From positions 1 through 64,000 of IMG/VR virus record IMGVR_UViG_3300044797_000396: a DNA stretch of 64,000 nt. One strand, written 5' to 3'. The stretch is from a virus. Position numbers and translations under genes: made by a program. Position 1 is the first letter of the stretch; every line of letters starts with the position of its first letter. The notes under the pieces were generated by a model. It did no database searches. It saw only the letters and a list, made by a program, of their open reading frames with translations, and was not told the DNA's origin. Shown in pieces: positions 35,930 through 62,084 of this stretch.

Positions 35930-36648
35930 ATAAAGTATTGAGTATTATTATTCCAGTTTGGAATAAATCGCACTTCACTAAAACTTGTATTCAAGACTTA
36001 TCTTTACTACCAGCGGATCACGAGATCATTTTAGTTGATAACGGTAGTACTGATGATACTGAAACAATATTCCGAAATCTAAAATTGAAAACTACTGCGC
36101 CTGAGTTTCGATACGTGCGCAATATTACTAATTTAGGTTTTGCTTGTGCCTGTAATATTGGTTATGAGGAAGCTATTGCCCATAATGTTTTGTTCCTTAA
36201 TAATGACATCAAAGTGCGCGATCATTTTACTGATTGGACTAGTTCTTTAATAGAGCATTGTGTTACTTCTTTGGTTGGACCTACCATGGGGCAACTTAAT
36301 AATGAATTGGCCTTTGTCAAAGAAGCCAACCAAGAATTGCCTGGTAAATCCTATATGTCTGGTTGGTGTCTTGCCTCGTCCAAAGAAATATTCAAGAAAT
36401 TGGAAATTCCCAGACCTCTTTGTATCTACGACCACATTCCAGCACCTCAAATATTTTCCGAAGAATTTGGGAAGGCTTATTTTGAGGATACCGACTTATC
36501 TTTCCGAGCCAGACAATTGGGTATTCCATTCAAGGTAGTAAATATTCCAGTGGTTCATTTTGGAAAACAGACCAGCTCGCAACTCAATACACACAAATTA
36601 TATTCCGAAGCTAGGCAAATCTTTATTAAGAAGTGGGCTAAGAAATGA
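35926..36648 (+). CDS. Glycosyltransferase family 2
   Basis: LSIIIPVWN, EIILVDNGSTD, NLGFACACNIG, FLNND, YFEDTDLSFRA. Confidence 0.9.
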   Translation: MNKVLSIIIPVWNKSHFTKTCIQDLSLLPADHEIILVDNGSTDDTETIFRNLKLKTTAPEFRYVRNITNLGFACACNIGYEEAIAHNVLFLNNDIKVRDHFTDWTSSLIEHCVTSLVGPTMGQLNNELAFVKEANQELPGKSYMSGWCLASSKEIFKKLEIPRPLCIYDHIPAPQIFSEEFGKAYFEDTDLSFRARQLGIPFKVVNIPVVHFGKQTSSQLNTHKLYSEARQIFIKKWAKK

Positions 36649-36962
36649 AGTATTTTTCGCATGAACTAAGTGATTGGACTTGGTTTGATAGAAATCTTTA
36701 TAGGACAAATGATCAAAAAGGTGACAAGCAGTTTTTGATCGGGTTGGTATGCCTCGATAAACCCAAGCCTATTCAGAATACACATGAGCTTTGGCGAGTA
36801 GATGTTTTAGATTGGGGGGGCAATCTACAGTATCATACTATTTCTTTACTCAAAGAAGCGGGTTTATATCGTAAAGAGTATTCTTATAGCGAATTGGATC
36901 AAGCTAGAAAAGAATTAGATAATTTTATTATTCGAGTTGATAAACTGAAACTATTTATATAG
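36645..36962 (+). CDS. Small hypothetical protein with conserved C-terminal tag (RVDKLKLFI)
   Basis: 105 aa, ATGA-coupled. Its C-terminus matches the KLKAF-type tag. Confidence 0.7.
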   Translation: MKYFSHELSDWTWFDRNLYRTNDQKGDKQFLIGLVCLDKPKPIQNTHELWRVDVLDWGGNLQYHTISLLKEAGLYRKEYSYSELDQARKELDNFIIRVDKLKLFI

Positions 36963-36978
36963 AGAAAGAACGTGTATT

Positions 36979-37818
36979 ATGCCGGAAGGAGTCGAGGTCA
37001 AACTAAGTGCAGAAGTAATTAAGCCATTAGTAAAAGACAAACGAGTTCTCAGTGTTTCATTAGGAGCTAATAGTAGATACAAGTCACAACCTCCTGAGGG
37101 GTTAAATAAGTTTATTGAGGCTACATGTGCTGAAATAATAAAAGTAAATGATGTCCAAACTAAGGGTAAGTTTATGTATTGGACACTATCTCACGATTGG
37201 CATATGTTCTGCACGTTTGGTATGTCTGGTCAATGGAGCCCCAACAAAGGCAAACATCCTTGCTTGGGTATATTTTTGGGCGAAAACCATTTGACACATC
37301 CCGTAGAAAATATTTATTTTAATGATCCGCGCCATTTTGGAACTATCAAATTTACTAATAATCCAAAAGACTTGACAGATAAAATAAAAGAATTAGGTTG
37401 GGATCCATTGCAAATGTTATTATCCAACAATTTACCTTGGATTACGGCTCGGCTTGCAAGAACCAAAAAGCCTATTGCCGAGGTGTTGATGGATCAAAAA
37501 ATCTTTGCTGGCGTTGGCAACTATATAAAATGTGAAGGTCTTTACAGGGCAAAACTTTCCCCATGGAGAGCTAGTCCATCTCTGAATAACGCAGAGATAC
37601 AACTTTTATGTCAGTCTATTGTGGATGTAATGAACGAGTCGTATCAGCATCAGGGTGCCACCATACAAACTTATAAAACTGTGTACGGTGAAGAAGGAAG
37701 ATATTCAACACTTTTCAGGGTGTATGGTAAAAAAGTGGATCCTAATGGAAACAAAATAATTAGCGAAATAACGCCAGATAAGAGGAACACGCATTGGTGT
37801 CCCATTATCCAAAAATAG
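36979..37818 (+). CDS. mutM: Formamidopyrimidine-DNA glycosylase (Fpg/Nei family)
   Basis: N-terminal MPEGVEV catalytic motif, KGKFMY, GMSGQW, FNDPRHFG, H2TH LMDQKIFAGVGNYIKCE, and C-terminal RNTHWCP. Confidence 0.9.
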   Translation: MPEGVEVKLSAEVIKPLVKDKRVLSVSLGANSRYKSQPPEGLNKFIEATCAEIIKVNDVQTKGKFMYWTLSHDWHMFCTFGMSGQWSPNKGKHPCLGIFLGENHLTHPVENIYFNDPRHFGTIKFTNNPKDLTDKIKELGWDPLQMLLSNNLPWITARLARTKKPIAEVLMDQKIFAGVGNYIKCEGLYRAKLSPWRASPSLNNAEIQLLCQSIVDVMNESYQHQGATIQTYKTVYGEEGRYSTLFRVYGKKVDPNGNKIISEITPDKRNTHWCPIIQK

Positions 37819-37922
37819 TGTGCCCATCGATATAATAGTGTGTATGAAGAAGCGCACCAGCACAAATATAATTTACAAAATTACCGCTATAACTAGAATT
37901 ATAAAAAAGTTAGGAAACAAAA

Positions 37923-38909
37923 ATGACAATAGTGAATAAAATTTTGATTATATGTTGTGTTTTACTTGGTGTTGGATTAGTATCATATATGATCTACAAC
38001 CAAGAAGTGATTAAAAAACAAAATACGCAACTGCAATCTCAGATTGTTGCGCAACAACAACTAGTGGATGGCATCGTTCGTAGTCAAAGTCAGTATGCCT
38101 CCGCAGCGGATTTGGCTAAGTTTGCCGCTGACAATGATATCAATCTGAAAGCCATCCAAACTAATTTGCAAAGCCTTAACTCACAACTATCTTCTATCAA
38201 TGTTATTACCGCAGATAGTTCTGGTCAAACAGTTACCAATGTTAGCAGCACTAGCACTGGCCCAGCCAATCCCAATCCAGTAGCAGCGGGCACTTCCGAT
38301 CCTTCCGGCTATATGAAAAATGAGCAACAGCTAGCTCTCAACGAAGACTTTGGCACTCTCAAAGTGCCCTTTGGCACGGTAGGCTTCTCTGCCTGGCAAG
38401 CAGCTCCTTGGAATATCAATATTCTTCCAAGGGAGTATAATGTAGATACCGTAGTGGGAGTGGATGCTAACGAGAGACAAACTTTCTACAATAAATTTAC
38501 GGTAGATATCGGTGGCAAAACTTATGACATTCCAATCAAGAAAGCTACCACCGAGCAGCGGCTACCTAAGGCAACTTTTAGCTGGTGGAACCCGAAATTG
38601 TTCTTGACCGCAGGAGGTGGGCTCAACATTACTAGCTTGCCAGTCAATGGTTCCTTCAATGTGGGCGCGACTATGGAAATAATGTCATACGGAATATATC
38701 AAACAAGTCCCACTCTCTCTATCTTGCAATTAGGAGCGGGTTATCAGTCTAACAAAAACCAATTTACTGCTATTATTAACCCCATCAACTACAATGTGGG
38801 TAAACTTGTTCCAGGTAATCTTGCGAACAATACCTACTTGGGGCCTTCCATTCAGTTTTCACCCAACGGGAATGTATTTGCTGGATTGAATATTAGTATG
38901 GGATTTTGA
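37923..38909 (+). CDS. Membrane-anchored protein with coiled coil and C-terminal amphipathic beta strands
   Basis: N-terminal TM segment (ILIICCVLLGVGLVSYMIY), Gln-rich coiled coil, and a C-terminus ending VFAGLNISMGF. Confidence 0.55.
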   Translation: MTIVNKILIICCVLLGVGLVSYMIYNQEVIKKQNTQLQSQIVAQQQLVDGIVRSQSQYASAADLAKFAADNDINLKAIQTNLQSLNSQLSSINVITADSSGQTVTNVSSTSTGPANPNPVAAGTSDPSGYMKNEQQLALNEDFGTLKVPFGTVGFSAWQAAPWNINILPREYNVDTVVGVDANERQTFYNKFTVDIGGKTYDIPIKKATTEQRLPKATFSWWNPKLFLTAGGGLNITSLPVNGSFNVGATMEIMSYGIYQTSPTLSILQLGAGYQSNKNQFTAIINPINYNVGKLVPGNLANNTYLGPSIQFSPNGNVFAGLNISMGF

Positions 38910-40710: not shown

Positions 40711-40794
40711 ATCTATACCTCAGAAATAAAAATAATAATTCGACCATCTCAAAATTAGACAAGCGATATAAATACGAACACAAGGAGCATAATA

Positions 40795-42156
40795 ATGCCA
40801 GCTACGAGCACAACCGAACAAGGAACAAAAGAAATAATTACGGACAATGTATCTAATACGGAAATCCGTCATCCAGAAGTAGTAGATCTCGGCAAATTGG
40901 CCGCCCTCAAAGCACAAAGCCAAGCCAAGCAAAATCAGGAGAATAAAATGGCAGCTAAGATAGTGTCAAAGAAAGAACGAAGTATCGTATTAGGGGTACT
41001 AGGATCAGGTCAGGCCGGTTCTAGAATTGCCGAGGCTTTTTACAAACTGGGATACGATGCGGTGGTATGCAACACTTGTATGGCCGATCTAAAATTTTTA
41101 GATATTCCAGATAGTAATAAACTTTTATTGGAGTATGGGGTTGGTGGCGCCAGCAAAGAGTTAGAAATCGGTCGTCAAGCAGCCGAAACTCATAGAGGAG
41201 AAATTTTACAATTAGTGAATGGAAAACTATCGGGATCTCAGGTTAATATTTTGTGTTTTTCTTTGGGCGGTGGATCGGGTGCAGGTTCATGTGAAACATT
41301 AGTAGAAATTATGTCCAACTTAGGTAAGCCGTTGGTGGTCATTACTGTTCTTCCGATGGATACCGATGATGCACAGACGAAATCAAATTCATTAGAAACT
41401 TTATCTAAATTGGCCGCTTTCGCTAGAACGAAAAAAATAAATAATCTTATTGTGATTGATAACGCAAAAATCGAAAGTATTTATCACAATGCCAATCAAT
41501 TTGATTTCTTCAATTTGGCTAATAAATCAATAGTAGAAACTTTCGATTCATTCAACACTATGTCGTCGTTGCCTTCGGCAATCAAAGCTCTTGACCCAAT
41601 GGAATGGTCAAAAATCTTGATGGATGGTGAAGGATTAAGTGTGTATGGTGAATTTATAGTAAATAATTATGTTGAAGATGTGGCTATTGCTCAGGCGGTA
41701 GTGGAAAATCTCAGCAATAATTTGTTGGCAAGTGGTTTTGATCTAAAAGGCGCTAAATATGTTGGATTTATTGTATCCGCCAATAAAGATGTTTGGGCAA
41801 AAATACCTGCGTCTAGCATTAATTATGCAACATCAATGGTTAATGATCTAACGCCAGGAGCTAAAGGCGTATTCAAGGGCATCTATACAGTAGAAAATCA
41901 AGATGATTTCGTTAAAGTGTATTCTTTTTTCTCGGGTCTCTCGTTGCCAACTGCGAGAATTGAGCAACTTAAAAATGACACGCTAGAATTGCAATCCAAA
42001 ATAAAAATTAAGGATGAAGAGCGTAATCTTTCGCTACAGTTAAATGTTGGCTCCAATGAAACAATTAGTGACGCGCAAAAGATTAAAAATAAAATTGCAG
42101 CAAAAAGCTCTACCTTTGGAAAATTTGTAAGTGGAACAGTCGATCGTAGGAAATAA
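40795..42156 (+). CDS. Tubulin/FtsZ-family GTPase (PhuZ/TubZ-like)
   Basis: LGSGQAGSRIA, SLGGGSGAG (tubulin signature loop), ITVLP, IDN and C-terminal coiled coil. There are two in-frame ATGs, each with an RBS (40795, 40948). Confidence 0.85.
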   Translation: MPATSTTEQGTKEIITDNVSNTEIRHPEVVDLGKLAALKAQSQAKQNQENKMAAKIVSKKERSIVLGVLGSGQAGSRIAEAFYKLGYDAVVCNTCMADLKFLDIPDSNKLLLEYGVGGASKELEIGRQAAETHRGEILQLVNGKLSGSQVNILCFSLGGGSGAGSCETLVEIMSNLGKPLVVITVLPMDTDDAQTKSNSLETLSKLAAFARTKKINNLIVIDNAKIESIYHNANQFDFFNLANKSIVETFDSFNTMSSLPSAIKALDPMEWSKILMDGEGLSVYGEFIVNNYVEDVAIAQAVVENLSNNLLASGFDLKGAKYVGFIVSANKDVWAKIPASSINYATSMVNDLTPGAKGVFKGIYTVENQDDFVKVYSFFSGLSLPTARIEQLKNDTLELQSKIKIKDEERNLSLQLNVGSNETISDAQKIKNKIAAKSSTFGKFVSGTVDRRK

Positions 42157-42518
42157 TGGTTAAGATACGCGATATTAATTTGTCGTCTTTCACGTATTCA
42201 CAAATCAATAAAAGAGATGATGGCACCATTATTTCCCATTGTGAATTTGTAAAATCTAATATGGTAGCTAATATAGAGGCTTTCCATAACAAAAATTATG
42301 ATCAGTCAGACGCCATCTTTCTGTGTTGTCGAGAGAAGATTGAAAACTCCGATGATTATAGATATACGATGTGCACCATTCCTACAACTGGATATGATGC
42401 CGAAGTAACGAACGTTCGATTAGACAGTTTTAGTAGGCTGCCCACAATTATATTATATAGTAGATCAAACATAGCCGATGTTATAAAAAGAGTATTGAAC
42501 AATCTAATTTTTTCCTAA
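42156..42518 (+). CDS. Small hypothetical protein, paralog of 42548..42901; variant C-terminal tag (RVLNNLIFS)
   Basis: Shares CxREKxExxxYRYxxxTIPT and F..[LM]PTIIL with the downstream ORF. Confidence 0.7.
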   Translation: MVKIRDINLSSFTYSQINKRDDGTIISHCEFVKSNMVANIEAFHNKNYDQSDAIFLCCREKIENSDDYRYTMCTIPTTGYDAEVTNVRLDSFSRLPTIILYSRSNIADVIKRVLNNLIFS

Positions 42519-42547
42519 TTAACCTATTTCCCCATTCGAGAATAACA

Positions 42548-42901
42548 ATGAGAACCGCAACAATAGTTTCTAATCCTTTTCGCCAACATCCCAAAGAGGG
42601 CGAAACCCCTAAAACACCAACCGAGATGATGAAGGCTAGCGTATCTGAAAGTTTGGATGTGTTTGATGGTAACAATCTTGAAACCGCAGACAGGGATTGT
42701 ATTTGTATCTGTGCCCGAGAAAAAACTGAGTTAGGCGAATATCGATACAGCACCATAACCATTCCTACCAAAGAATATTCTACTAACCTAGTCAATGTGG
42801 TGTTAGCTAATTTCAAGAAGATGCCTACTATCATTTTGGATGATAAAGCGGACACCGTAGAAACAGTGCGCAGGGTGCTAACTAATCTTAATTTTTCGTG
42901 A
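42548..42901 (+). CDS. Small hypothetical protein, paralog of 42156..42518; variant C-terminal tag (RVLTNLNFS)
   Basis: Visible similarity to the upstream ORF. Confidence 0.7.
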   Translation: MRTATIVSNPFRQHPKEGETPKTPTEMMKASVSESLDVFDGNNLETADRDCICICAREKTELGEYRYSTITIPTKEYSTNLVNVVLANFKKMPTIILDDKADTVETVRRVLTNLNFS

Positions 42902-44701: not shown

Positions 44702-46165
44702 ATGAGCAAGATAATTATATTGGACAATAAAAAATGCCGGATTATATCCGATGATGCCGATATGCTCAAAGAGCTGCATCAATATTTGTCCTTCAAGCTA
44801 ACCGGTATTGAATACACTCCCGCTTACCAAAATGGTTGGAGTGGTATTACCTATTTACTCAGCAAAACCAATAAGTTTAATTACGGATTGCTACACAAGG
44901 TAGAGTGTTTTCTACAAGATAGGGAAGTTATCTATACAGTAGAGGATAAGCGCGCCCCCAAAGTTATGGTCCCTGAATTAAGCATACAAGATAGTCTCCA
45001 AAAACATCACCTCATTCCCAGAGACCATCAAGAAAGAATTTGTCAGGCCGCCCTAGCTACCGACAGGGGAATTATCAGGGCCGTGACTGGTTCAGGCAAA
45101 ACATTATGCACCGCCCTGATTACTGCTAAGCTAAACAAACCGACTATTATTTATGTGATTGGTTTAGATTTATTAGATCAGTTTTACAAACTGTATTCTA
45201 AGTTGTTTGACGAGCCTATCGGATACATTGGCAATGGTGTGTGTCGTATCGAGAGGATCAATATCGCTTCTATTTGGACGATTGGGCGTTCTCTAAAACT
45301 TGATATCAAAGATATTATCAATGACGATAGTGATGGTGGCGAGCAGGAATTGGATGAAAGCAATCAAACCAAGATCATTAATTTATTAGCGAAAACTAAG
45401 TTGCATATTTTTGATGAAAGCCACGTAGTAACAACCACCACCATCACTGAAATTTATAAAAATATAGACCCCGAATATTTGTATGGTTTTAGCGGCACCC
45501 CCTTCCGAGATGATAATTCCGATTTGCAAATCAATGGTATTCTGGGAGAACAAATTATCTATGTTTCTGCTTCCGAATTGATCGATAAAGGTTTGTTGGC
45601 AGCCCCCTTGATCAAGTTTTACACCGTGCCTAAGATGTCGGTTTCGAGCAACACCTATCCCACTGTTTATAAAGAATATATTGTTGAAAATGAAATTAGA
45701 AATAATTTAATCGTCAAATTATCCAAAGAATTAATTGACAAGAAATATACGCCACTTCTGCTATTCAAGCAAATCAAGCACGGTGACATTCTCTTAGAAA
45801 AATTAGAAGACGCCAATATCAAGTGCGCTATGTTGTATGGCAATGATACTTTGGATAAAAGAAATGAAGTCAAAGAGCAACTTGTCAATAAGAAAATACA
45901 CCTAATTTTAGCCAGCACTATTTTCGACTTAGGTTTAGATTTGCCCGAACTCAACGCCCTAGTCTTGTGTGGCGGAGGTAAAAGTAGTATTCGAGCTTTA
46001 CAGCGAATAGGTCGCGTAATTAGAATGCACGGAAATAAGAAATTTGCTGCCGTGGTAGATTTTTATGACCAGGTCAGATTTCTCAAAAAACATTCTATGA
46101 CCAGGTATAGTATTTATTCTTTGGAAAAAGGTTTCAAGGTAATCAAGTCAAAGGAAATGAAATAA
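44702..46165 (+). CDS. Superfamily 2 DNA helicase (UvsW/XPB-like)
   Basis: PRDHQ, TGSGKT, DESH, SGTPFRDD, GLDLP, QRIGRVIR. Confidence 0.9.
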   Translation: MSKIIILDNKKCRIISDDADMLKELHQYLSFKLTGIEYTPAYQNGWSGITYLLSKTNKFNYGLLHKVECFLQDREVIYTVEDKRAPKVMVPELSIQDSLQKHHLIPRDHQERICQAALATDRGIIRAVTGSGKTLCTALITAKLNKPTIIYVIGLDLLDQFYKLYSKLFDEPIGYIGNGVCRIERINIASIWTIGRSLKLDIKDIINDDSDGGEQELDESNQTKIINLLAKTKLHIFDESHVVTTTTITEIYKNIDPEYLYGFSGTPFRDDNSDLQINGILGEQIIYVSASELIDKGLLAAPLIKFYTVPKMSVSSNTYPTVYKEYIVENEIRNNLIVKLSKELIDKKYTPLLLFKQIKHGDILLEKLEDANIKCAMLYGNDTLDKRNEVKEQLVNKKIHLILASTIFDLGLDLPELNALVLCGGGKSSIRALQRIGRVIRMHGNKKFAAVVDFYDQVRFLKKHSMTRYSIYSLEKGFKVIKSKEMK

Positions 46166-46166
46166 G

Positions 46167-46433
46167 ATGCGTCGATTTTGGAAATTTTTTATCAATGAGA
46201 TAAGTTTTGTTTATCAGAACAAAAAATATGTATTGGAAGTTGGGTATGTCAATACCCATCCAGGATTATATATGAGATTGTATGATCAGGATGGTCAGCG
46301 GCTGGCGGGCAGCTGGGTTTCCAAGGTCGAAGAAAAAGTTAGAGATAGTAGTTTTGATTTTGTGGATAAAAAAATAGTGGATATTTGCGTAGCACAAGCT
46401 CGTCGCATAGAAAAATTGAAAGCATTCGTATGA
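46167..46433 (+). CDS. Small hypothetical protein with conserved C-terminal tag (RIEKLKAFV)
   Basis: 88 aa, ends in the KLKAF tag, ATGA overlap with the next gene. Confidence 0.7.
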   Translation: MRRFWKFFINEISFVYQNKKYVLEVGYVNTHPGLYMRLYDQDGQRLAGSWVSKVEEKVRDSSFDFVDKKIVDICVAQARRIEKLKAFV

Positions 46434-47035
46434 TAGATAAATTAGAAGAAACAGGCGGGGAACTAACCGCTATTCCCAACGACAAGTATCGTAAGTTCTT
46501 TGACAAGTTTGCCGAGATCGAAACGCTAGATGTTTCGCAGTGGAAAGTGGCACATTTATTGGGCTATTTCTGCAAAAGATACAAGGAAGCATTAGGAACG
46601 GATTATGCTTGGAAGTTCAACAATCCCAGCCCCACCAAATGTTTTGAGGTATGGCAAGCCAATACCCTGGCTGCAAAACTCTCTGCTAATCCTAAAATCC
46701 TCAAAGACTACATTGATTGGGCGTTTGACACTTTGGTTAAGGGTAAGAAATACAAGCCGCGTTCCATTTCCTTCCTCACCAAAGAAGAAGTGGTTATCCC
46801 TTATAAGATGAATGTTTTGTTGGCTGGACAAAGAAACTCCAATGTGGATCGTTCTGCTTCCCTGCCAACTATCTACCAAGATATTCTACAACAAACGGCT
46901 GGTATTACTATTAGCACGTATGGTGATTTAGCTTTTATCTCACAAGCCGAGCCATTACCAGACAACATCATATTAGCGTTGGATCGAATGGTGGAGGCAG
47001 GATTTGATCGAGAAGTATTGAAGAGAATAGTATGA
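46430..47035 (+). CDS. Hypothetical protein (possible replication initiator/primosome component)
   Basis: The true start is likely ATG 46430 (ATGA overlap). LKDYIDWAF...SISFL. It lies near the DnaC/DnaB-like genes; function is inferred from context only. Confidence 0.5.
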   Translation: MIDKLEETGGELTAIPNDKYRKFFDKFAEIETLDVSQWKVAHLLGYFCKRYKEALGTDYAWKFNNPSPTKCFEVWQANTLAAKLSANPKILKDYIDWAFDTLVKGKKYKPRSISFLTKEEVVIPYKMNVLLAGQRNSNVDRSASLPTIYQDILQQTAGITISTYGDLAFISQAEPLPDNIILALDRMVEAGFDREVLKRIV

Positions 47036-47343
47036 TAGTTATTAAAAAACGAAAACTTAATTTTCTTGTGGGTGGCACAAACCCCGGAAGAATGACGCTT
47101 GATGTATTGAAGATATTTCGTCTTCCATACAATCTAACATTTATTCCCGATGAAGATAACATTTTAGAATTTGCTGTTAAACAGGCTCAAAATCTTAATT
47201 GGGATCCTGACACAACTTTGTGTGTCTGGACTAATAAGTCGCCTGCTCCGTATCCGCGTGTCTCTTTGTTTATTAAAGACATGACTGTTGAGAGACTGAT
47301 TAGTGCTACCGATAGAGTGGCAAAATTAAAGGCATTCATATGA
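47032..47343 (+). CDS. Small hypothetical protein with conserved C-terminal tag (RVAKLKAFI)
   Basis: 103 aa, diverged paralog of 47340..47645 (IK.RK, NWD, LFIKDMTVERL vs LIINDITFEKL). Confidence 0.7.
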   Translation: MIVIKKRKLNFLVGGTNPGRMTLDVLKIFRLPYNLTFIPDEDNILEFAVKQAQNLNWDPDTTLCVWTNKSPAPYPRVSLFIKDMTVERLISATDRVAKLKAFI

Positions 47344-47645
47344 TGATTATTAAGCCAAGAAAATTTCGAGCCCGCACAAAATGGCAGGAACATAGCATAG
47401 GTATATTTGATATTTTAGATGCGCTTCATATCCAACATATTGAGATGGAAGCTCCATATGATATTGATGTTTTAGAAACTTATAAGCAAAATATTTTATC
47501 AATGAATTGGGATATTAATAAAGCCATGGTAATGCCTGTAAAAGCTCCTGGTAGAAGGCGTCTTGCATTGATTATCAATGATATAACTTTTGAGAAACTT
47601 GTGGATGCCATCAATAGGGCGGTAAAATTAAAGGCGTTTTTATGA
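47340..47645 (+). CDS. Small hypothetical protein with conserved C-terminal tag (RAVKLKAFL)
   Basis: 101 aa, paralog of the upstream ORF, ATGA-coupled on both sides. Confidence 0.7.
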   Translation: MMIIKPRKFRARTKWQEHSIGIFDILDALHIQHIEMEAPYDIDVLETYKQNILSMNWDINKAMVMPVKAPGRRRLALIINDITFEKLVDAINRAVKLKAFL

Positions 47646-48106
47646 CAGACATAAAAATTGGAAAGCACGTTAAATATTTTTTGCGCAATGGAATGGTATT
47701 GGAAGGTTTTGTCGAAAAAGACACTCCCTCCGAATGCATATTAAAATCAATAGATGGTAAAAATCTATTGATTGTGCATCGTCCAACCGAGGATATATTG
47801 CTGACGAAGGTGCTGCTAGAAGAGCCTGAAATTGTAGAAGAAAAAGTTATTGAAACTCCTAAAAAATTGACAGAAACTCAACAAGAAGTCAGAGATAAGT
47901 TGCAGCAAGTTATACGGCCCACGGGCGAACCAGAGCTTGATAAACTAAATATCAAACAGCTACGTGTGCTGGTGCAAGAGCAAGATAAACAAATCATCGC
48001 TCAGAAAAAGAAGGAGCACTTTGGAAGTCCAGGGGCTGCCAAACGAGCCGTACCATATAGCACACCGAAATCAGCATATATGCCCGGCAAACTGCCAAGG
48101 ATGTAA
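47642..48106 (+). CDS. Hypothetical protein with Hfq/Sm-like N-terminus
   Basis: GKHVKYFLRNGMVLEGFVEK...CILK resembles Hfq Sm1 (V.IYLVNGIKLQG.I...VILLK). Confidence 0.45.
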   Translation: MTDIKIGKHVKYFLRNGMVLEGFVEKDTPSECILKSIDGKNLLIVHRPTEDILLTKVLLEEPEIVEEKVIETPKKLTETQQEVRDKLQQVIRPTGEPELDKLNIKQLRVLVQEQDKQIIAQKKKEHFGSPGAAKRAVPYSTPKSAYMPGKLPRM

Positions 48107-48108
48107 GT

Positions 48109-48813
48109 ATGGAACCGTTAAACTTTGTTCGCTCATCAGCATTAAATAATATTCCAACTAAAAAACTACAAGATAAGCTAACTGCCATACAAGAAGGGGA
48201 AGATGCTCAGGAAGCTAAGATTATCAAGCTAATCGCTATCAATCGTTATGCTGAGAGTAATATTCCTATTGAGTATTGGGGATTGTCGATGGAAAAAGAT
48301 TTCACTGGGGATCCTCGCCTCAAACAGAAGTATGATGAATATGTGGTGGACGTCAAGAATTCTTACATTACTGGCAACTCTCTGTGTTTAGCAGGAGCGC
48401 ATGGTCTGGGCAAAACTATGACGGTCACTTGTATGCTTAAAAAGGCTGCTCAAAAAGGATACACTTGCCTCTACACTAATTTGAGTGATATCGTTTCAGT
48501 GATGACGCAAGCTAGTAGTGAAGATAAGTTTCTATCTAGACGAGAATTGGTGTTGGTAGATTTTTTAGTGATTGATGAATTCGATCCTAGATTTATGGCA
48601 ACGGAGAATGCGGCTGATTTATATGCTAGAAGTTTAGAGGGCGTGTTCCGCACTCGTAGTCAGAATAAACTACCTACTTTGATGTGCACTAATAGCCCCA
48701 ATGTAGTAGAAAGTTTTAGCGGCCCACTCCGAGCTAGTATTGACAGTTTGATGAAGGGGTATATGAAAGTCTTCTCCGTATTAGGCGATGATTTTAGAAA
48801 GAAGGGTAAATGA
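48109..48813 (+). CDS. DnaC/IstB-like AAA+ helicase loader
   Basis: Walker A GAHGLGKT, Walker B FLVIDE, R..NKLPTLMCTN, GDDFRK. It is directly upstream of DnaB. Confidence 0.85.
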   Translation: MEPLNFVRSSALNNIPTKKLQDKLTAIQEGEDAQEAKIIKLIAINRYAESNIPIEYWGLSMEKDFTGDPRLKQKYDEYVVDVKNSYITGNSLCLAGAHGLGKTMTVTCMLKKAAQKGYTCLYTNLSDIVSVMTQASSEDKFLSRRELVLVDFLVIDEFDPRFMATENAADLYARSLEGVFRTRSQNKLPTLMCTNSPNVVESFSGPLRASIDSLMKGYMKVFSVLGDDFRKKGK

Positions 48814-50219: not shown

Positions 50220-50926
50220 TGAAAAAAGTGTGCATTAGATGTGGAGTTGAAAAAGATACAGACAATAGTGATTTTTCCTTCATAAAAAAGACTCAAAAAT
50301 ACGATAACACTTGTAGACAGTGCAACAGAGAATACCAAGAGAACTATCGTGAAGAAAACAAACAAGTATTGTTATCTGATAAAAAACTATACTATCAAAA
50401 TAATAGGGTGAGTATAAGGGCCAAGCAAAAACTCTACAGGCAACAAAATCTTGACGCGTATAAGATACGAGACAAAAAGTATTATGAAAACAATAAGGAT
50501 ACAATAATTTTCAAGAAGCGTGCTTATAAAAAGAAACGACGAGAAACAGACCCAGTTTTCAATTTGAGAAACACGATATCAAGAGCTATAACTTTAATGA
50601 TTTCTTCCCAAGGTGCCATAAAACATAGGAAATCTTGTTTGAAACATCTACCATACACCATTCAAGAATTAAAAGATCACTTGGAAAAACAATTTGAGCC
50701 GTGGATGAATTGGGATAATCACGGAGTATATGTCAGTAATCAGTGGGATAATAATGATTCATCTACTTGGTTTTGGCAGCTTGATCATATTGTGCCGCAA
50801 TCTGACTTGTCTTATTCATCAATGGAAGATGATAATTTTAAGAAGTGTTGGGCATTAGAGAATTTACGACCTCTCAGCGCTAAACAAAACCATCTGGATG
50901 GTGTCAATAGAACGAGACATAAATAA
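50219..50926 (+). CDS. HNH-type homing endonuclease-like protein
   Basis: CxxC..CxxC, HLEKQFEPWMNWDN, WQLDHIVPQS, KCWALENLRPLSAKQN. Paralog of 17966..18691. Confidence 0.7.
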   Translation: MKKVCIRCGVEKDTDNSDFSFIKKTQKYDNTCRQCNREYQENYREENKQVLLSDKKLYYQNNRVSIRAKQKLYRQQNLDAYKIRDKKYYENNKDTIIFKKRAYKKKRRETDPVFNLRNTISRAITLMISSQGAIKHRKSCLKHLPYTIQELKDHLEKQFEPWMNWDNHGVYVSNQWDNNDSSTWFWQLDHIVPQSDLSYSSMEDDNFKKCWALENLRPLSAKQNHLDGVNRTRHK

Positions 50927-50945
50927 GCATATAATAAGGGTTAAA

Positions 50946-51122
50946 ATGAAACCAGATGAAGAAGTTGTCGGGGAGGCAGTCAGAGTAGAATATACGGAAC
51001 ACGATGGTAAACTATTTTTAGTCTTTGAGATAACGAACGAAAAATATAAACAAGATATCAAGTTAAATTGGATAAAAGATTTAGAATACAAAATTGTGGA
51101 TAAGTCTTTGGTAAAAAAATGA
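50946..51122 (+). CDS. Small hypothetical protein
   Basis: Likely start ATG 50946 after AAGGG. 58 aa. Confidence 0.55.
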   Translation: MKPDEEVVGEAVRVEYTEHDGKLFLVFEITNEKYKQDIKLNWIKDLEYKIVDKSLVKK

Positions 51123-51472
51123 ATGATATAGAATATAACAATCTCATATTGTTGGCAGAAAATTACAAACACATATGCATCAATATGTCCGAATATACTG
51201 GTATAATTACTGGACAATACTGGAAGCTAATGTCTCTAATTACAGAACAAAAAATTATACAAGCTGGTTTATACGGAACTCTTTTTAGCGCCAAACTTTG
51301 GGTGGGAAAACATATTGCCCCTAGTTATGTTTCGGTATCTAATAATGGTACCATAACCAGCATTGAAGAAATATGGTTAAATGAGGAGGAACTTAGTAAG
51401 TGGTCGGATCAGTGCCCACTAAAATTAGCTAACGAGATGGAACGAGCACTGAAACTGAAAGCTTTTTGGTAA
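51119..51472 (+). CDS. Small protein with conserved C-terminal tag (RALKLKAFW); central segment resembles a major capsid protein fragment
   Basis: 117 aa, EMERALKLKAFW terminus, internal EQKIIQAGLYGTLFSAKLWVGKHIAPSYVSV. Confidence 0.65.
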   Translation: MNDIEYNNLILLAENYKHICINMSEYTGIITGQYWKLMSLITEQKIIQAGLYGTLFSAKLWVGKHIAPSYVSVSNNGTITSIEEIWLNEEELSKWSDQCPLKLANEMERALKLKAFW

Positions 51473-51473
51473 A

Positions 51474-51626
51474 ATGATTGAACTAACTTATTATTTTTGT
51501 GAGCCTTGTGGCCACGAATGGAAAAACAAAAGTGATTTTGTCCAACAATGTCCGAATTGCCAGTCCGATAATATCTACATTTCTGAATTAACAGATACGC
51601 AGCCAGAGGGTATAAAGGAAGAATAA
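51474..51626 (+). CDS. Small zinc-ribbon protein (50 aa, not in ORF track)
   Basis: Read directly: MIELTYYFCEPCGHEWKNKSDFVQQCPNCQSDNIYISELTDTQPEGIKEE. Two CxxC pairs, fills the gap exactly. Confidence 0.7.
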   Translation: MIELTYYFCEPCGHEWKNKSDFVQQCPNCQSDNIYISELTDTQPEGIKEE

Positions 51627-51627
51627 A

Positions 51628-51819
51628 ATGAGTTTATGGTGCTTTACAGATCAACCAATAAAAATTGGCGATGAGTATCAGGGATATTTAGTAGTTAATA
51701 TCCAGCAAAAAATAATGCCATCAGTTTTGATGTATAACTATCACGCTCGCTTGCAAAATCTACCAGAGCAACCAGAGATAATGAAACAATGTATCCAACT
51801 TTCAAGCAAGGAAAAATAA
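51628..51819 (+). CDS. Small hypothetical protein
   Basis: 63 aa, AAGGA RBS. Confidence 0.5.
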   Translation: MSLWCFTDQPIKIGDEYQGYLVVNIQQKIMPSVLMYNYHARLQNLPEQPEIMKQCIQLSSKEK

Positions 51820-51882
51820 ATTCCTTCTGATAGGCAATTACGTTATTAACATAATACTTATCAATATAAGTGTATTAATATT

Positions 51883-52698
51883 ATGACAATTTTATCTATT
51901 AAAGAAATCCCAATATTGCCTTCTGGCAAATATAAACACAGAGAGATATTATTAAAATGTGATGAGTGTGGAATAGAATATACCAGACCACATAGTAAAA
52001 ATAGGGATTTAAAAAGCGAATTACATTTTTGTTCTAAACGGTGTAGCGATAAATCAATAACTGATGGTGCATTAAGGCAAAAATCAGTTAATACAATGAA
52101 TGTAAAGTATGGCTCGTCATATGTTAAAACTAAAAAATTTAAAGTTGAACGGGAAGAAACATTTTTACGTAAGTACGGGGTTAAAAGTATACTTAATTCT
52201 CCTGAAATAAAACAAAAGATCAGAAAAAGTAATTTAGAAAAGTATGGTCAGGAAGTTTATGCCGGCAGTGATGATTGGGAGTCGAAATTAGATCGTATTG
52301 AAATCGCCCGTAAAGCGTGGCTTACCAAAATTGAAAATGGCACTTGCTCTAAATCGGCTCCTGAGGAAAAATTATTTTTGCTATTAGAAAGTGTTTTTGG
52401 TAAAAGTGATATAAAAAGGCAAGTTCGTGTTATTAGACGGTGGATAGATTTTTATATAATTTCTATAGATTTATATATCCAAGTAGATGGGGTCTATTGG
52501 CACGGGCTCAACAGAAACATTGAGCTAATTAAACTAGGAAAAACATCACAAGATAGGAAAATATATAAACAAATATTAAGAGATCAAAAACTTAATCAAT
52601 ATATGAAAGATAATAATTTTAGGTTAGTCAGATTAACTGATGAACAAATTAAAACTTATTTACCAGAAGATATCATTGCTATATTAAAAGGAACGTAA
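51883..52698 (+). CDS. Homing-endonuclease-like protein (Zn finger + KYG repeats + Vsr/DUF559-like nuclease)
   Basis: CDECG..FCSKRC, three KYG repeats, IDFYI..IQVDGVYWHG..RD..LN..LVRLTD. Very AT-rich. Confidence 0.7.
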   Translation: MTILSIKEIPILPSGKYKHREILLKCDECGIEYTRPHSKNRDLKSELHFCSKRCSDKSITDGALRQKSVNTMNVKYGSSYVKTKKFKVEREETFLRKYGVKSILNSPEIKQKIRKSNLEKYGQEVYAGSDDWESKLDRIEIARKAWLTKIENGTCSKSAPEEKLFLLLESVFGKSDIKRQVRVIRRWIDFYIISIDLYIQVDGVYWHGLNRNIELIKLGKTSQDRKIYKQILRDQKLNQYMKDNNFRLVRLTDEQIKTYLPEDIIAILKGT

Positions 52699-56815: not shown

Positions 56816-56839
56816 TACTAAAATGGTATTACTAGTGAA

Positions 56840-59461: not shown

Positions 59462-59470
59462 GGAGTTTTC

Positions 59471-60114: not shown

Positions 60115-60123
60115 GTCAAAACC

Positions 60124-60933
60124 ATGAGAACGAACATTCCCAAAGGATCGTTCAGCGATAATAATTTAGTGCGTCTCAAAAATGAAGATTGGTTGCAAAA
60201 ACAAAGGGTTGCTGGCAAAATTGCTGCTAGCGCCCTTTTGCTATTGGACAACGAAGTCAAGCAAGGTACCACTAAAACATTATTAGAGTTGGACAAATTA
60301 GCAGAAACTTACATTAGAGATAATGGTGGTATACCTACTTTTTTGATGTATAAAGGATTTCCCAATTCTGTTTGTGTAAGCGTGAATAAACAATTAGTTC
60401 ACGGTATACCTACCGATTATGTTTTGCAAGAAGGGGACATAGTTAGTTTTGATCTAGGAGTGACGGTTGAAGGAGGAGCTATTGCCGATACTGCTATTAC
60501 TTGCCTTTTTGGTAAGCCTAAATCAGAAAAACATATTCAGTTAATCAAAGATACAGAAGAAGCCTTGATGCGTGGTATTCGAGCTATTAAGGTGGGCGAT
60601 AGGCTAGGTGTTATTGGAGAGGCTATTTATAAATATAGCCGTAAACATAATTATGGGGTCATCAATAATTATGGTGGTCATGGCTTAGATTGGAATATTC
60701 CGCACGCCTCGCCATTTGTGGAAAACAAATCAGATCATACCAAGGGAATGAGAATTCAACCAGGACTTACCATAGCCATCGAACCAATGTTTACCTTAGG
60801 TTCTACCACCACTACCACCGCCGAGGATGGTTGGACGGTGGTAACGCCCGATCTGAGTGCGCACTTTGAGCATTCTATTTTTGTCCACGACACTCATGTA
60901 GAGATTATTACTGATAGGAGTAATTTGTGCTAA
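60124..60933 (+). CDS. map: Methionine aminopeptidase type I
   Basis: YKGFPNSVCVSVN..VHGIP, GDIVSFDLG, DTA.T, GHG, IAIEPM, DGWTVVT, SAHFEHSI. Confidence 0.92.
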   Translation: MRTNIPKGSFSDNNLVRLKNEDWLQKQRVAGKIAASALLLLDNEVKQGTTKTLLELDKLAETYIRDNGGIPTFLMYKGFPNSVCVSVNKQLVHGIPTDYVLQEGDIVSFDLGVTVEGGAIADTAITCLFGKPKSEKHIQLIKDTEEALMRGIRAIKVGDRLGVIGEAIYKYSRKHNYGVINNYGGHGLDWNIPHASPFVENKSDHTKGMRIQPGLTIAIEPMFTLGSTTTTTAEDGWTVVTPDLSAHFEHSIFVHDTHVEIITDRSNLC

Positions 60934-61184
60934 CTATTCGAGATTGTAATATAAGTATGAGCGCGGCTCGCCAAGATCCTCTGATCTCTGAAGAAGACAA
61001 TGGTGATATTATTCTAGATAAACTTATAATTCACGATCTGGATTACGTTATACGGCTAGAACAAGAATTCGGTGTCAAACTAAAGTTCAAGCTAATGTTG
61101 GCGGTGGATGAGCCGGGCGGTCCCACTGGCTATTATGATGAAAATGATATTCGCAAGGTATTAAGCAACAAGGCGTTTTGGTGA
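60927..61184 (+). CDS. Small hypothetical protein with C-terminal tag (KVLSNKAFW)
   Basis: 85 aa, AGGAG RBS before GTG. The terminus matches the tag. Confidence 0.65.
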   Translation: MLTIRDCNISMSAARQDPLISEEDNGDIILDKLIIHDLDYVIRLEQEFGVKLKFKLMLAVDEPGGPTGYYDENDIRKVLSNKAFW

Positions 61185-61188
61185 TTAA

Positions 61189-61404
61189 ATGAGTGTCGTA
61201 ATCGCAGATGTAGCTGATAGTAATATCCTTCTAATTGCTGATGGTATTTCCAAAGGAATATCAGAGAAAGAAATAATTGAGGCGTATATTATCGTTGGGT
61301 TCGGGATGGCGGATATTACACTATTATTAGCGGCCGCAAAATTACTATGCACGGATCGTAAAAACGTTCAACCCACCAAAAAATTATTTAAGAGGGTAGT
61401 ATGA
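61189..61404 (+). CDS. Small hypothetical protein
   Basis: 71 aa ORF in the operon. Confidence 0.55.
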   Translation: MSVVIADVADSNILLIADGISKGISEKEIIEAYIIVGFGMADITLLLAAAKLLCTDRKNVQPTKKLFKRVV

Positions 61405-61577
61405 AAATAATTTTCGAGGATAAATCATTTGTGGAGTGCGCCAAATCCAATACCCCTGGCAAAGTAGTTATTACTATTAGTGCGAAAGATGGCACAGACC
61501 CCCTTAAAAAAATTATCAATGCCGTAGAGATTACCGAAAAAGAATTCCAAAGACTGATTAGCGATGTCCAAGCCTAA
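61401..61577 (+). CDS. Small hypothetical protein (58 aa, not in ORF track)
   Basis: ATGA overlap, GAGGG RBS. MKIIFEDKSFVECAKSNTPGKVVITISAKDGTDPLKKIINAVEITEKEFQRLISDVQA. Confidence 0.6.
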   Translation: MKIIFEDKSFVECAKSNTPGKVVITISAKDGTDPLKKIINAVEITEKEFQRLISDVQA

Positions 61578-61833
61578 AAACTCAATCTGCCCAATGTGCA
61601 AAGAATGGATGATTGATTGGGCAGATGGTAGCCAGTGTGGACAGTGTGGTATTGTATATTGGTCAGCATCAAGCATTGAAGCTCAAATAGGCATTAGGTC
61701 TTCCAATACAAAATCGGAATGGTCGCAGATACCTTTACCTGTCGATCAGCCATATTATTATTTTATAGAGCACGAAAAATTTTATACCGTCTCAGAGATG
61801 GAAAGATTATGTCGTCTGAAAGCATTCCTATGA
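61564..61833 (+). CDS. Zinc-ribbon small protein with C-terminal tag (RLCRLKAFL)
   Basis: CPMC..CGQC, paralog of 61830..62084. Confidence 0.7.
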   Translation: MSKPKNSICPMCKEWMIDWADGSQCGQCGIVYWSASSIEAQIGIRSSNTKSEWSQIPLPVDQPYYYFIEHEKFYTVSEMERLCRLKAFL

Positions 61834-62084
61834 ACCATATCTGCCCTATGTGTAAGCAAGAAATGGATGTGGCCGGTCGATGTATGAAATGTGATATCAT
61901 ATACTGGTCACTTGAAGAGCTGGAAGAATTACAAAGTAAAAATGGTGATATCTTTGCTACTGAGCCGTGGTCAAAAATACGTCTCAATCCCATCGATCAA
62001 TCATATTATTATTTTTTTAAACACGGAAAATTTTATACCGTTCCAGAAATGGAACGTCTTACAAAATTGAAGGCATTTCTATGA
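61830..62084 (+). CDS. Zinc-ribbon small protein with C-terminal tag (RLTKLKAFL)
   Basis: True start is likely ATG 61830 (ATGA overlap). CPMC..CMKC, shares WS.I.L..P.DQ.YYYF..H.KFYTV.EMERL with the upstream ORF. Confidence 0.7.
   Translation: MNHICPMCKQEMDVAGRCMKCDIIYWSLEELEELQSKNGDIFATEPWSKIRLNPIDQSYYYFFKHGKFYTVPEMERLTKLKAFL

Follow-up and report, generated by a model that had tools for sequence, protein, structure and literature searches.

Several otherwise unlike proteins of the T4 and T7 replisome and transcription machinery share a C-terminal tail in which an aromatic residue close to the free end is critical, and these tails are read by a single hub, the clamp gp45 in T4 and the DNA polymerase in T7. 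The ssrA tag and the ClpX-binding tail of SspB act in strict C-terminal register, have the carboxylate as part of the signal and are portable to any body. In the internal proteins of T-even phages the capsid targeting sequence (CTS) occupies the N-terminus, spans about 10 residues and is cut off by the prohead protease. As described in one account (PMC3012670), the CTS is a short terminal peptide that forms the sole feature common to a highly diverse set of strain-variable, small defence-related proteins (IPI, IPII, IPIII and Alt) and directs its bearers to one machine. The HbYX motif of proteasome activators is presented in two papers (PMC12352868, PMC10349882) as a hydrophobic residue, a penultimate aromatic and any residue, at the exact C-terminus.

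A protein tail encoded by a very large soil phage (megaphage) invites comparison with all of these. The window, a stretch of 64,000 nucleotides, belongs to a record of 90,550 bp (90.5 kb) that is a fragment of a ~400-kb phage (CheckV completeness 21%). The original prediction was that ten small ORFs in the window share a nine-residue C-terminal tag, and on re-reading the sequence all ten were found in place with exactly the last nine residues proposed. Eight end in RVDKLKLFI (36962), RIEKLKAFV (46433), RVAKLKAFI (47343), RAVKLKAFL (47645), RALKLKAFW (51472), KVLSNKAFW (61184), RLCRLKAFL (61833) and RLTKLKAFL (62084), and two have a looser second flavour of the tail, h-L-h-F-S/T (RVLNNLIFS, 42518; RVLTNLNFS, 42901). 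The ten carriers, a cassette formed by two of them and one doubtful member are as follows.

34074..34745, + strand: doubtful member, 223 aa, ending ...EEMIERLLKIRRHLWT, with Trp at -2 and a misfit to the core K-A-F
36645..36962, + strand: carrier A, 105 aa, tail ...FIIRVDKLKLFI, Leu replacing Ala at -3; between a GT2 gene and an Fpg/Nei gene
42156..42518, + strand: carrier B, 120 aa, with a tail of the second flavour, ...VIKRVLNNLIFS; start overlapping the stop of a tubulin-like gene; paralogue of carrier C (E 6e-20)
42548..42901, + strand: carrier C, 117 aa, second-flavour tail ...TVRRVLTNLNFS
46167..46433, + strand: carrier D, 88 aa, tail ...QARRIEKLKAFV; in a slot between a helicase gene and a conserved gene with a likely start (ATG at 46430) overlapping the carrier D stop
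47032..47343, + strand: carrier E, 103 aa, tail ...ATDRVAKLKAFI; paralogue of carrier F
47340..47645, + strand: carrier F, 101 aa, tail ...AINRAVKLKAFL
47031..47640, + strand: E+F cassette, 610 bp, with a TATGA direct repeat at both bounds (47031–47035 and 47641–47645)
51119..51472, + strand: carrier G, 117 aa, tail ...NEMERALKLKAFW
60927..61184, + strand: carrier H, 85 aa, tail ...DIRKVLSNKAFW; directly 3' of a methionine aminopeptidase gene
61564..61833, + strand: carrier I, 89 aa, zinc ribbon and then YYYF..H.KFYTVSEMERLCRLKAFL; weak zinc-ribbon matches only in Pfam
61830..62084, + strand: carrier J, 84 aa from an ATG overlapping the carrier I stop, tail ...EMERLTKLKAFL

The observation holds as a whole and extends further than was proposed. 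The tagged set is not confined to the window, since at least 10 further carriers lie at 75.5–90.5 kb, among them the final gene of a leftward operon (75557–75757), and the whole record has about 20 tagged ORFs, approximately one-fifth of the genes on the fragment. The nine-residue end is real, but the conserved stretch is closer to 12 residues, with an extra hydrophobic position at -11. For the ORF ending at 62084 the tail was correctly given, whereas the start at 61719, where the longest ORF begins, is unlikely; the start is probably 61830 or 61809, the latter giving 91 aa. The predicted EMER sequence upstream of the tail is present in the ORFs ending at 51472, 61833 and 62084.

The tail follows the consensus h-x-[RK]-h-x-[KR]-[LM]-K-A-F-[LWIV]-stop and is tied to the stop codon. 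In the six-frame translation of the record [KN][LN]K[AL]F matches 10 times, each time with a single residue between it and a stop, and of the 13 matches to [LN]K[AL]F-x among 103 greedily chosen ORFs, 12 lie at the C-terminus. Phe occupies position -2 in 21 of these 103 ORFs, against an overall Phe frequency of 4.3% (binomial P 2.7e-9). The DNA pattern for K-A-F-x-stop matches the record 15 times, 13 of them at the ends of listed ORFs, and a reversed control gives none. Chance is therefore excluded as the source of the shared tail. Among 55 tails a basic residue (R/K) is found at -9 in 46, and a hydrophobic residue fills -8 in 80% and -11 in 89%, positions that played no part in choosing the relatives. 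Position -3 is Ala or hydrophobic, Ala being near-invariant, Phe at -2 is invariant, and of the last five positions -1 varies most, with a terminal Trp in 18 of the 55. Upstream of -12 the information content falls to the background level.

A matrix built solely from the 21 tails of this record, applied with a threshold of 8 bits, finds the tail in related huge phages. At least 8 bits are reached at 31/703 protein ends against 14/125,326 internal windows in relative G002, at 17/702 against 16/144,025 in G001 and at 9/423 against 5/79,845 in G004; two relatives are nearly without it (in G009, 1/497 protein ends). All 17 orthologues of a 171-aa carrier stop at the same residue, ending ...AF[LI], and no C-terminal extension past the tail occurs in these or in any of the 55 tails. 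The tail is conserved across several of these phages.

Selection acts on the peptide, since synonymous codons at identical residues are used as expected: among 582 residue-identical pairs the same-codon fraction is 0.416, compared with 0.402 expected from the codon usage of the genome. This disposes largely of the idea that a recombination site, promoter, terminator or ribosome-binding context is being read as peptide; AAAGCTTT (K-A-F) is indeed a palindrome and cassettes come and go at a short direct repeat, but Arg -9 is encoded by five codons (besides Lys codons) and Leu -5 by four, the reversed DNA control is empty, and the direct repeat spans the last codon and stop only.

The bodies in front of the tail are of many kinds. 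The ten carriers fall into the seven families proposed ({36645}, {42156, 42548}, {46167}, {47032, 47340}, {51119}, {60927} and {61564, 61830}), and with the tails removed only paralogue pairs still match each other. Bodies range from 58 to about 220 aa, some being zinc ribbons, one of repeat type and others alpha/beta. None of 98 tagged proteins matches any Pfam family, and no Pfam-nameable enzyme was found to bear the tail, in keeping with its predicted absence from core enzymes. A profile-profile comparison of two carrier families gave an alignment confined to the last 15 columns, an identical 25-residue end is joined to a zinc-ribbon body in this record and to a different body in relatives, and two database proteins contain the module twice. 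The tail is portable, one end being found on different bodies, and the tail-cut and codon tests uphold its description as a peptide-level, strictly C-terminal element on bodies without detectable similarity.

The carriers are accessory genes with cassette-like gain and loss, an exchangeable set flanked by conserved core genes as had been proposed, and in the record they lie in among genes for replication and nucleotide metabolism. Of the 20 tagged ORFs, with the doubtful member entered as tagged, 5 have a homologue in at least one of six relatives; of the 83 untagged ORFs, 69 do (Fisher P 1.3e-6). Carrier A has no Pfam or PHROG family and no homologue among the six, no homologue of carrier B was found in relatives, and the doubtful member has neither a Pfam family nor a homologue there. 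In four of four soil runs (4 studies) the contigs run straight from 47030 to 47641, so that E and F are precisely absent, and relatives L001, L002 and L007 have no ORFs in this slot either. One soil contig has an in-frame 198-bp deletion in carrier D (46209–46406) that leaves 14 + 8 codons, including IEKLKAFV. Carrier G is present in soil runs X2–X4; its true orthologue in G002 shares 29% identity and has the tail RYLKLVAFW. Tagged ORFs without body similarity occupy matching inter-gene slots in G002, including that of carrier D.

The reading that we favour, with a probability of about 0.4, is that the tail is a docking or addressing element read by one putative partner. The last ~12 residues, corresponding to the end of a terminal helix, would form a portable C-terminal address, with the penultimate Phe and the free carboxylate kept in fixed register, and through it the phage could handle its fast-evolving, strain-variable small accessory proteins as one group. 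The repertoire of carriers probably consists of host-takeover or anti-defence effectors. The reader itself is inferred, and so are the candidates for it. The one ranked first, unlikely when taken singly, is the core or scaffold of the procapsid. In that case the tail would match the T4 CTS in role, though at the C-terminus, and would serve to pack effectors into the very large head so that they are co-injected. Against capsid loading, no carrier of at least 8 bits lies within the G002 head or tail regions (110–200 kb), none of the proteins adjoining the major head protein has the tail at its end, and carriers are mixed in among replication and nucleotide-metabolism genes. A Clp-type proteolytic machine, with the tail as degron or adaptor tether, is ranked second and is a little more doubtful. 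A tandem ClpP/ClpR-like pair is present in 4/4 large relatives, outside the head module, and G002 has a tmRNA. Against this candidate, G009 retains the ClpP pair, AAA proteins and the SET gene with the tail at just one end, the tag of the G002 tmRNA is unlike the tail, and a ClpX/ClpA-type AAA_2 domain reached the cut-off once, weakly, in G004 only. Another phage or host hub, ranked third, is improbable to much the same degree, falling between the other two.

A possible though doubtful alternative is that there is no separate reader. The carriers would go back, through duplication, to one or a few small proteins in which the terminal strand-turn-helix is structurally indispensable, the end unit being a fold cap or a foldon-like self-association element and the bodies having diverged under diversifying selection. 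Tandem paralogues are common (E/F, I/J, K/L/M and the pair at 80069/80302), as such descent would have it, and the G002 positional counterparts could be very diverged orthologues. By reading, many of the 55 tails consist of a hydrophobic strand, a D/N/S/T-x-x-E cap and a helix of 14–16 residues, a layout compatible with common descent. Two AlphaFold models set the tail with fair confidence as the final helix, directly following the last beta-strand of the body. Carrier J (zinc ribbon, beta-hairpin, terminal helix; AlphaFold2 mean pLDDT 66) has strands at 67–71 and 74–76 and a helix at 78–89, and in the 171-aa carrier pLDDT goes from 91 to 73 across the last strand into the tail helix. From this placement the tail may be part of each carrier's fold and not a free handle. 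The original interpretation, with its proposed docking, is supported in part, as to a peptide-level, C-terminal, portable and accessory element, but its 'free amphipathic helix' is not established, because the tail is only weakly amphipathic (moment as an alpha-helix over 11 residues 0.33, against 0.29 for other C-termini; 0.30 against 0.25–0.27 in longer windows). Descent without a reader fits less well with the loss of information upstream of -12, with bodies that differ so much in size and type, and with one end on clearly different bodies. A structural helix rarely bars C-terminal extension, yet none is seen, and conserved residues of exposed type, R/K at -9 together with K at -6 and -4, suggest a role at the surface.

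It is improbable that the tail serves as a short helix for binding membranes or interfaces, of the MinD/FtsA targeting type, and brings accessory proteins to the inner membrane. Its terminal location, the basic residues flanking Leu and Phe, the frequent terminal Trp and a net charge of +2 would suit such a role, and a HeliQuest-type discriminant lies above 0.68 for 87% of the carriers in G002, compared with 39% of other C-termini; this discriminant is driven by charge, though, and the hydrophobic moment hardly exceeds background. Hydrophobic residues recur at every third position with R/K(-9) on the same face, and lipid binding needs neither the near-invariant Ala -3 nor the exact stop register.

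It is less probable again that the nascent tail acts in the exit tunnel, modulating termination and re-initiation at a tightly coupled downstream gene. The stop-codon register resembles that of arrest or termination peptides, and many carriers end in NTA-TGA with the stop overlapping the next ATG. The TATGA repeat bounding the E+F cassette is itself such a junction, and the strain with 14 + 8 codons of carrier D has kept the tail. Coupling, though, is hardly more frequent for carriers than for other genes, with overlapping starts after 5/19 carriers against 16/83 other genes here (5/31 against 49/643 in G002), no start lies within 30 nt downstream of 5/19 carriers here and 12/31 in G002, and the last gene of the leftward operon has the tail; the conserved zinc ribbons and the well-predicted 171-aa body point to real proteins.

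Returning to the proposed docking through the tail and the systems with which we began, the HbYX motif is similar in form, with Ala or a hydrophobic residue at -3, an invariant aromatic at -2 and a variable -1; the aromatic here is Phe and not Tyr, the carriers are small monomer-sized proteins and not ring ATPases, and a search of five records gave no domain of the proteasome or HslV families. The hub-docking tails of T4 and T7 belong to known DNA enzymes and are acidic, whereas this one is basic and sits only on proteins without a Pfam family; no beta-clamp domain was found in five related records. C-terminal register and portability are shared with the degrons and tethers of AAA+ proteases, and tag-bearing relatives encode the ClpP pair and tmRNA. 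The sequence class differs from that of ssrA-type tags (the tag of the G002 tmRNA ends ...AQAA), the tail is predicted to be helical and joined to the fold, and G009 combines a ClpP pair with a near absence of tails. The CTS resembles it in having a constant label on a variable body at hypervariable loci. It differs in that the tail is C-terminal, in register with the stop and unrelated in sequence, and is borne by far more numerous proteins.

All ten of the small ORFs in the window that were originally predicted to share one 9-residue C-terminal tag were recovered, and the last nine residues of each are exactly as described. Scanning the whole record added further carriers, that is, small phage ORFs ending in the same tail, which bring the tail-bearing ORFs to ~ 20 of 103.

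Carriers added beyond the window of the record
75557-75757, 75758-75967 and 75967-76227, all minus strand: carriers of zinc-ribbon type
80069-80305 and 80302-80538: paralogue pair
81853-82275: carrier ending KLRAFW
82279-82578: carrier from the whole-record scan
87830-88345: carrier ending KLSAFL
76214-76558, 87180-87833 and 89909-90550: looser h-L-h-F-S/A ends, from the whole-record scan

Chance occurrence of the tail is excluded by the statistics. Each of the ten six-frame matches to [KN][LN]K[AL]F is followed by one residue and then a stop, and 12 of the 13 strict motif matches in the 103 ORFs are terminal. The penultimate residue is Phe in 21 of these ORFs against a Phe frequency of 4.3% (P = 2.7e-9), and the DNA pattern for K-A-F-x-stop gives 15 matches as compared with none for a reversed control. 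The gene sets used here and below are greedy longest ORFs taken without a gene finder, so that some short ORFs are surely spurious, and carriers C and I were dropped from the set when longer overlapping ORFs won. Two longest-ORF starts are probably wrong: that of the conserved gene after carrier D (46385-47035), where the start is probably the ATG at 46430 overlapping the stop of D, and that of carrier J (61719-62084), which probably starts at 61830, overlapping the stop of carrier I, or at 61809. Among the RNA datasets, none was listed for window 46000-52000. Upstream regions in G002, a related IMG/VR record, show a weak Shine-Dalgarno signal (G up to 0.28 at -8; an SD-like 4-mer in 37%).

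The record is 90,550 bp long, its first 64 kb being the window, and its CheckV completeness of 21% indicates a fragment of a ~ 400-kb phage. Contractile-tail and baseplate genes at 1-34 kb are followed by one long co-directional block, which opens with glycosyltransferases, Fpg, a tubulin-like gene, lysozyme, helicase, a DnaC-like ATPase and DnaB and goes on to a sigma factor, ribonucleotide reductase, PhoH, methionine aminopeptidase and tail fibres; after it comes a leftward operon of ThyX, a GMP-reductase-like gene, DnaQ-like exonucleases, a SET-domain gene and dUTPase. No close cultured phage was found, the best DnaB match in the phage collection being 24% identical. DnaB did retrieve ten related IMG/VR contigs (45-74% identity), among them the near-complete records G001 (480 kb), G002 (433 kb) and G009 (361 kb). 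The record is syntenic with 163.6-241.7 kb of G002, and near-identical DNA is contained in peat and soil metagenomes.

To define the tail, 55 tails were aligned without gaps, 16 of them from the record. Of the other 39, all from relatives, 31 came from 40 fetched pattern places in G001, G002 and G004 (the other nine places are not ends of motif-bearing ORFs) and eight from four DnaB loci. The alignment gives the consensus h(-11)-x-[RK](-9)-h(-8)-x-[KRN](-6)-[LMN](-5)-K-A-F-[LWIV]. In the relatives' tails, the search pattern dictated -4 to -2 and left -5 to -11 free; the penultimate residue is F in 54 tails and W in one. Positions -5 to -11 are conserved all the same, with R or K at -9 in 46 of the 55 tails, and beyond -12, towards the N-terminus, information drops to background. 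In a family typified by a 171-residue carrier, the chain stops at the same residue after ...AF in all 17 orthologues (36-56% identity).

The synonymous codon variation that had been taken to mean selection on the peptide holds up quantitatively. Among residue-identical pairs in the final nine codons of 16 tails (n = 582), the fraction with the same codon is 0.416, where genome codon usage predicts 0.402, and Arg(-9) alone is encoded by CGA, CGC, CGT, AGA and AGG. The sole constraint seen at the DNA level is on the last codon, where NTA-TGA often makes the overlapping ATG of the next gene. In sum, the tail is a genuine and highly non-random feature, under selection as a peptide, portable and strictly confined to the C-terminus.

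A 12-column scoring matrix made from the record's 21 tails only, with a cut-off of at least 8 bits, was run on whole relatives. The comparison of C-termini with internal positions proposed as a check on the original prediction shows the tail enriched at protein ends in G002, G001 and G004.

Matches to the tail matrix in relatives (at least 8 bits)
G002: 31 of 703 protein ends; 14 of 125,326 internal windows; ~ 395-fold
G001: 17 of 702 protein ends; 16 of 144,025 internal windows
G004: 9 of 423 protein ends; 5 of 79,845 internal windows
G009 (more distant DnaB, 46%): 1 of 497 protein ends; 8 of 108,426 internal windows
G006 (67-kb fragment, closest by DnaB, 74%): 0 of 57 protein ends; 3 internal windows

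None of the 57 ORFs of G006 has F at -2. The near-absence from G009 and G006 indicates that the tail belongs to part of the clade, and that the record is unusually rich in it. Penultimate F is found in 80 of the 703 G002 ORFs against 4.6% (P = 1.3e-13), many of these ends being of a second, looser flavour such as ...KIKTLITFL and ...KKLILFS. Carriers in G002 cluster at 0-60, 80-110, 200-247 and 400-432 kb, and its head and tail region at 110-200 kb contains none at the same cut-off. Further afield, a library-wide profile search with a 30-column tail alignment gave three matches at E ≤ 0.001, a model too short to chart the range of the tail. The strict DNA pattern E-M-x-R-x-x-K-[LF]-K-A-F-x-stop matched four viral contigs and two genome contigs; only the match in L012 is a genuine ORF end, the other five being 12-23-codon fragments that read K-F-K-A-F.

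Concerning the second flavour, a tandem array of seven genes for 107-196 residues with such ends lies at 241724-246860 of G002 (L069), and even G008 and G009 contain homologues, over the full length, of the 213-residue member at the end of the record (89909-90550). The second flavour may therefore be an ordinary paralogous family.

The bodies that precede the tail are mutually dissimilar, as had been claimed. In all-against-all phmmer comparisons of 22 carriers with the last 12 or 25 residues cut off, only paralogue groups still match: {I,J}, {B,C}, {80069, 80302, (89909)}, {E,F} and {K,L,(M)}, where A-J are carriers in the window and K-M carriers beyond it. Profile-profile comparison of the zinc-ribbon carriers with the 171-residue family aligns the last 15 columns alone, with a one-turn insertion in the latter. 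A longer end of 25 residues, W/Y-x-x-N-G-x-x-Y-[TS]-x-x-E-M-x-R-L-x-K-L-K-A-F-L, stands behind the zinc ribbon in the record and behind another body in G001 and G004. Two database proteins matched by the tail profile bear the module DGPA...W..G...EEF..KLKAF twice, once internally and once terminally, a repeat that presumably resembles MORN-variant repeats. These proteins, P0005 and P0006 (155 and 162 residues), look like fusions of two carriers, with an internal tail (KLKAFG..., KLKAFF...) and a second, terminal one; either read-through or miscalling of tandem genes may account for them.

Domain searches recognised almost nothing in these bodies. No Pfam-A family matched at E ≤ 0.001 in 65 carriers from the record and G002 or in 33 from G001 and G004 (0 of 98 in total), and in PHROGs one of the 65 matched, to a family of unknown function. 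For the 217-residue carrier, the best ESM Atlas score is 0.78, to unnamed clusters; that clusters labelled Bacteroidota are the nearest is only a lead. The 171-residue carrier found no known fold by Foldseek (best E 0.2), and its best VIA-align match (2ffg_B, Z 4.8, rmsd 2.9 over 66 residues) has unrelated rows close below it.

The main rival to a tail with a binding partner is a last helix that the fold cannot do without and that was handed down by duplication. Helical ends are indeed predicted by AlphaFold2. Carrier J is modelled as a beta-hairpin followed by a terminal helix at residues 78-89 (mean pLDDT 66), and the 171-residue carrier as an alpha/beta body in which a terminal helix of 20 residues (151-170) continues directly from the last strand (145-150), with block pLDDT falling from 91 to 73 and then to 43 at the last residue. 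Co-folding two copies of this carrier with an alignment, in a run without controls, scored 0.00 against a mark of 0.42, a score that weighs neither for nor against self-association. The rival must be set against bodies that are unrelated beyond paralogue groups and a fixed distance to the carboxylate, and we consider it somewhat unlikely. From the sequences we would rather suppose, at a probability of about 40%, that one common reader accounts for the frozen 12-residue end; given these two features, it would be the most economical account.

The genes that bear the tail are accessory and cassette-like. By BLAST (E ≤ 1e-5), five of 20 tagged ORFs have a homologue in any of six relatives, as against 69 of 83 untagged ones, and for two of the five the match is tail-only or partial. 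In the relatives L001, L002 and L007 the order of core genes is kept and the tagged ORFs are absent or substituted. Tagged ORFs of G002 occupy the same slots as in the record (behind the helicase; as a pair behind the core gene that comes next; as another pair ahead of the kinase gene; next to the SET gene) without similarity of their bodies once tails are removed (empirical p 0.02-0.96); the single true orthologue pair of the record and G002 scores z 18 in this comparison. The clearest case is that of carriers E (47032-47343) and F (47340-47645). In soil contigs from four runs and four studies, with 88-99% identity to the window, 47030 is immediately followed by 47641, so that these strains lack exactly E and F. 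The cassette is 610 bp long and has at both ends TATGA, a direct repeat formed by the stop/start overlap; E and F are an insertion at such a junction, carried by some strains and missing from others. Carriers D (46167-46433) and G (51119-51472) were found in three soil runs. The tail is found only on accessory genes, a set with fast turnover, in a clade of huge phages from soil and peat.

The same soil contigs differ at other places. One, of depth 3.5, has an in-frame 198-bp deletion within D (46209-46406), leaving a 22-codon ORF of the first 14 and last 8 codons (IEKLKAFV) whose stop still overlaps the next ATG. The HNH endonuclease gene at 50219-50926 is missing from contigs of three runs, with 235 other letters instead, and the gene for 271 residues after carrier G (51883-52698) is precisely skipped in three runs, with 9 letters between. 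Both genes behave as mobile homing-type insertions.

Candidates for the reader were sought in the relatives, where the following features bear on the question.

Features of the record and relatives considered with candidate readers
G002 66529-67709 (L060 6529-7709): pair of ClpP genes, preceded by a DksA/TraR-type zinc-finger gene and distant from the head module
G002, L059 15645-15997 and 18637-18710, and L077: tmRNA (tag ANDNAFVPMAQAA), ~ 40 tRNAs and a tRNA with anticodon CTA
G002 122955-123938 (L063 2955-3938) and G009 126645-127700: lysin-like protein of 327-351 residues, in the packaging/head module
Record 82575-83066 (L015 18575-19066), minus strand: SET-domain gene, also in G001 (two copies), G002, G005 and G009

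Two adjacent ClpP homologues are present in all four large relatives (G001, G002, G004 and G009; E 1e-45 to 1e-52), and the first copy in G002 appears, by eye, to lack the catalytic Ser and His and to be ClpR-like. Together with the tmRNA, the pair makes phage-directed proteolysis a candidate reader. Against it, G009 has the same genes and almost no tails, and the tmRNA tag, which ends AQAA in G002, is of another class. An AAA_2 domain rose above the cut-off once only in the family search of related records, in G004. The G002 tRNA with anticodon CTA would read TAG; ORFs in the standard code nevertheless span 92.5% of that genome.

A bolder version of the common reader, which we hold to be quite doubtful, is that the tail is an address for effectors: it would load exchangeable anti-host proteins into the giant capsid or tether them to the phage Clp. 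By the first route, dozens of small anti-host proteins would be packed for co-injection; by the second, the carriers plus whatever they bind would be held at the Clp protease that the phage itself encodes. Stop/start junctions would be where new effector genes are inserted as cassettes. The block that holds the carriers contains lysozyme and has tail genes on both sides, and late expression is therefore possible; on the other side, the head module of G002 is without carriers and no scaffold-like protein has the tail.

Further possibilities were considered. Translational coupling is hardly more frequent in carriers than in other genes, and downstream starts within 30 nt are lacking for between a quarter and a third of the carriers. 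In G002, no protein in the neighbourhood of the terminase, protease and major head protein has the tail at its end, and scaffold mimicry was rejected. A tail-bearing ORF directly follows the SET gene in the record, G001 and G002; the idea that the tail lysines might be a SET substrate was dropped, and G009 has SET without tails. As a separate observation, the lysin-like protein, encoded just behind the terminase and a further two large genes, has the end RKFLMKFI in G002, and its counterpart in G009 has RRKFLLKFA; these ends are basic and Phe-penultimate, and only vaguely like the tail.

If one partner does read the tail, a twelve-residue peptide would mark the whole accessory effector repertoire of the clade, which amounts to dozens of proteins in each genome, all of them without a known function or a Pfam match. 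It would then be a single handle for pull-downs, for predicting effectors in metagenomes and for tagging cargo, and would show how huge phages gain and swap small genes with core operons undisturbed. Even without a reader, the carriers are a clean case of extreme divergence of the body with a frozen C-terminus. A limited search of the literature, over articles without supplementary files, found no description of the tail. PMC7824862 has no occurrence of "degron", "C-terminal helix" or "C-terminal motif"; it treats ClpP and BCS1-like AAA+ proteins.

Several known systems invite comparison with the tail. Relative to membrane-targeting helices of the MinD/FtsA type, which combine a high helical hydrophobic moment with basic residues on the flanks, the hydrophobic moment of the carriers' last 11 residues is barely above background (0.33 against 0.29 for other C-termini, a weak difference), and the charge term is raised. 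Clamp-binding tails of the PIP-like/beta-motif kind may also be compared; the C domain of the beta-clamp (DNA_pol3_beta_3) was found in none of five relatives and, with no Pfam match in 98, no carrier is a recognised DNA enzyme. The HbYX motif, as described in abstracts, resembles the tail in its form of hydrophobic, aromatic, any residue and carboxylate, but Phe replaces Tyr in the carriers; the proteasome/HslV ring (PF00227) is absent from the record, G001, G002, G004 and G009. Degrons of the ssrA/ClpX type likewise lie at the extreme C-terminus but end in small non-polar residues (..LAA/..AA), whereas the tail ends K-A-F-[LWIV]. The capsid targeting sequence of T4-type phages is N-terminal and is removed by the prohead protease at a consensus site; as there, the carriers are unrelated, variable small proteins with a common short terminal peptide, which in their case is C-terminal. 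Were the tail an effector address, it would be a functional phage counterpart of effector translocation signals.
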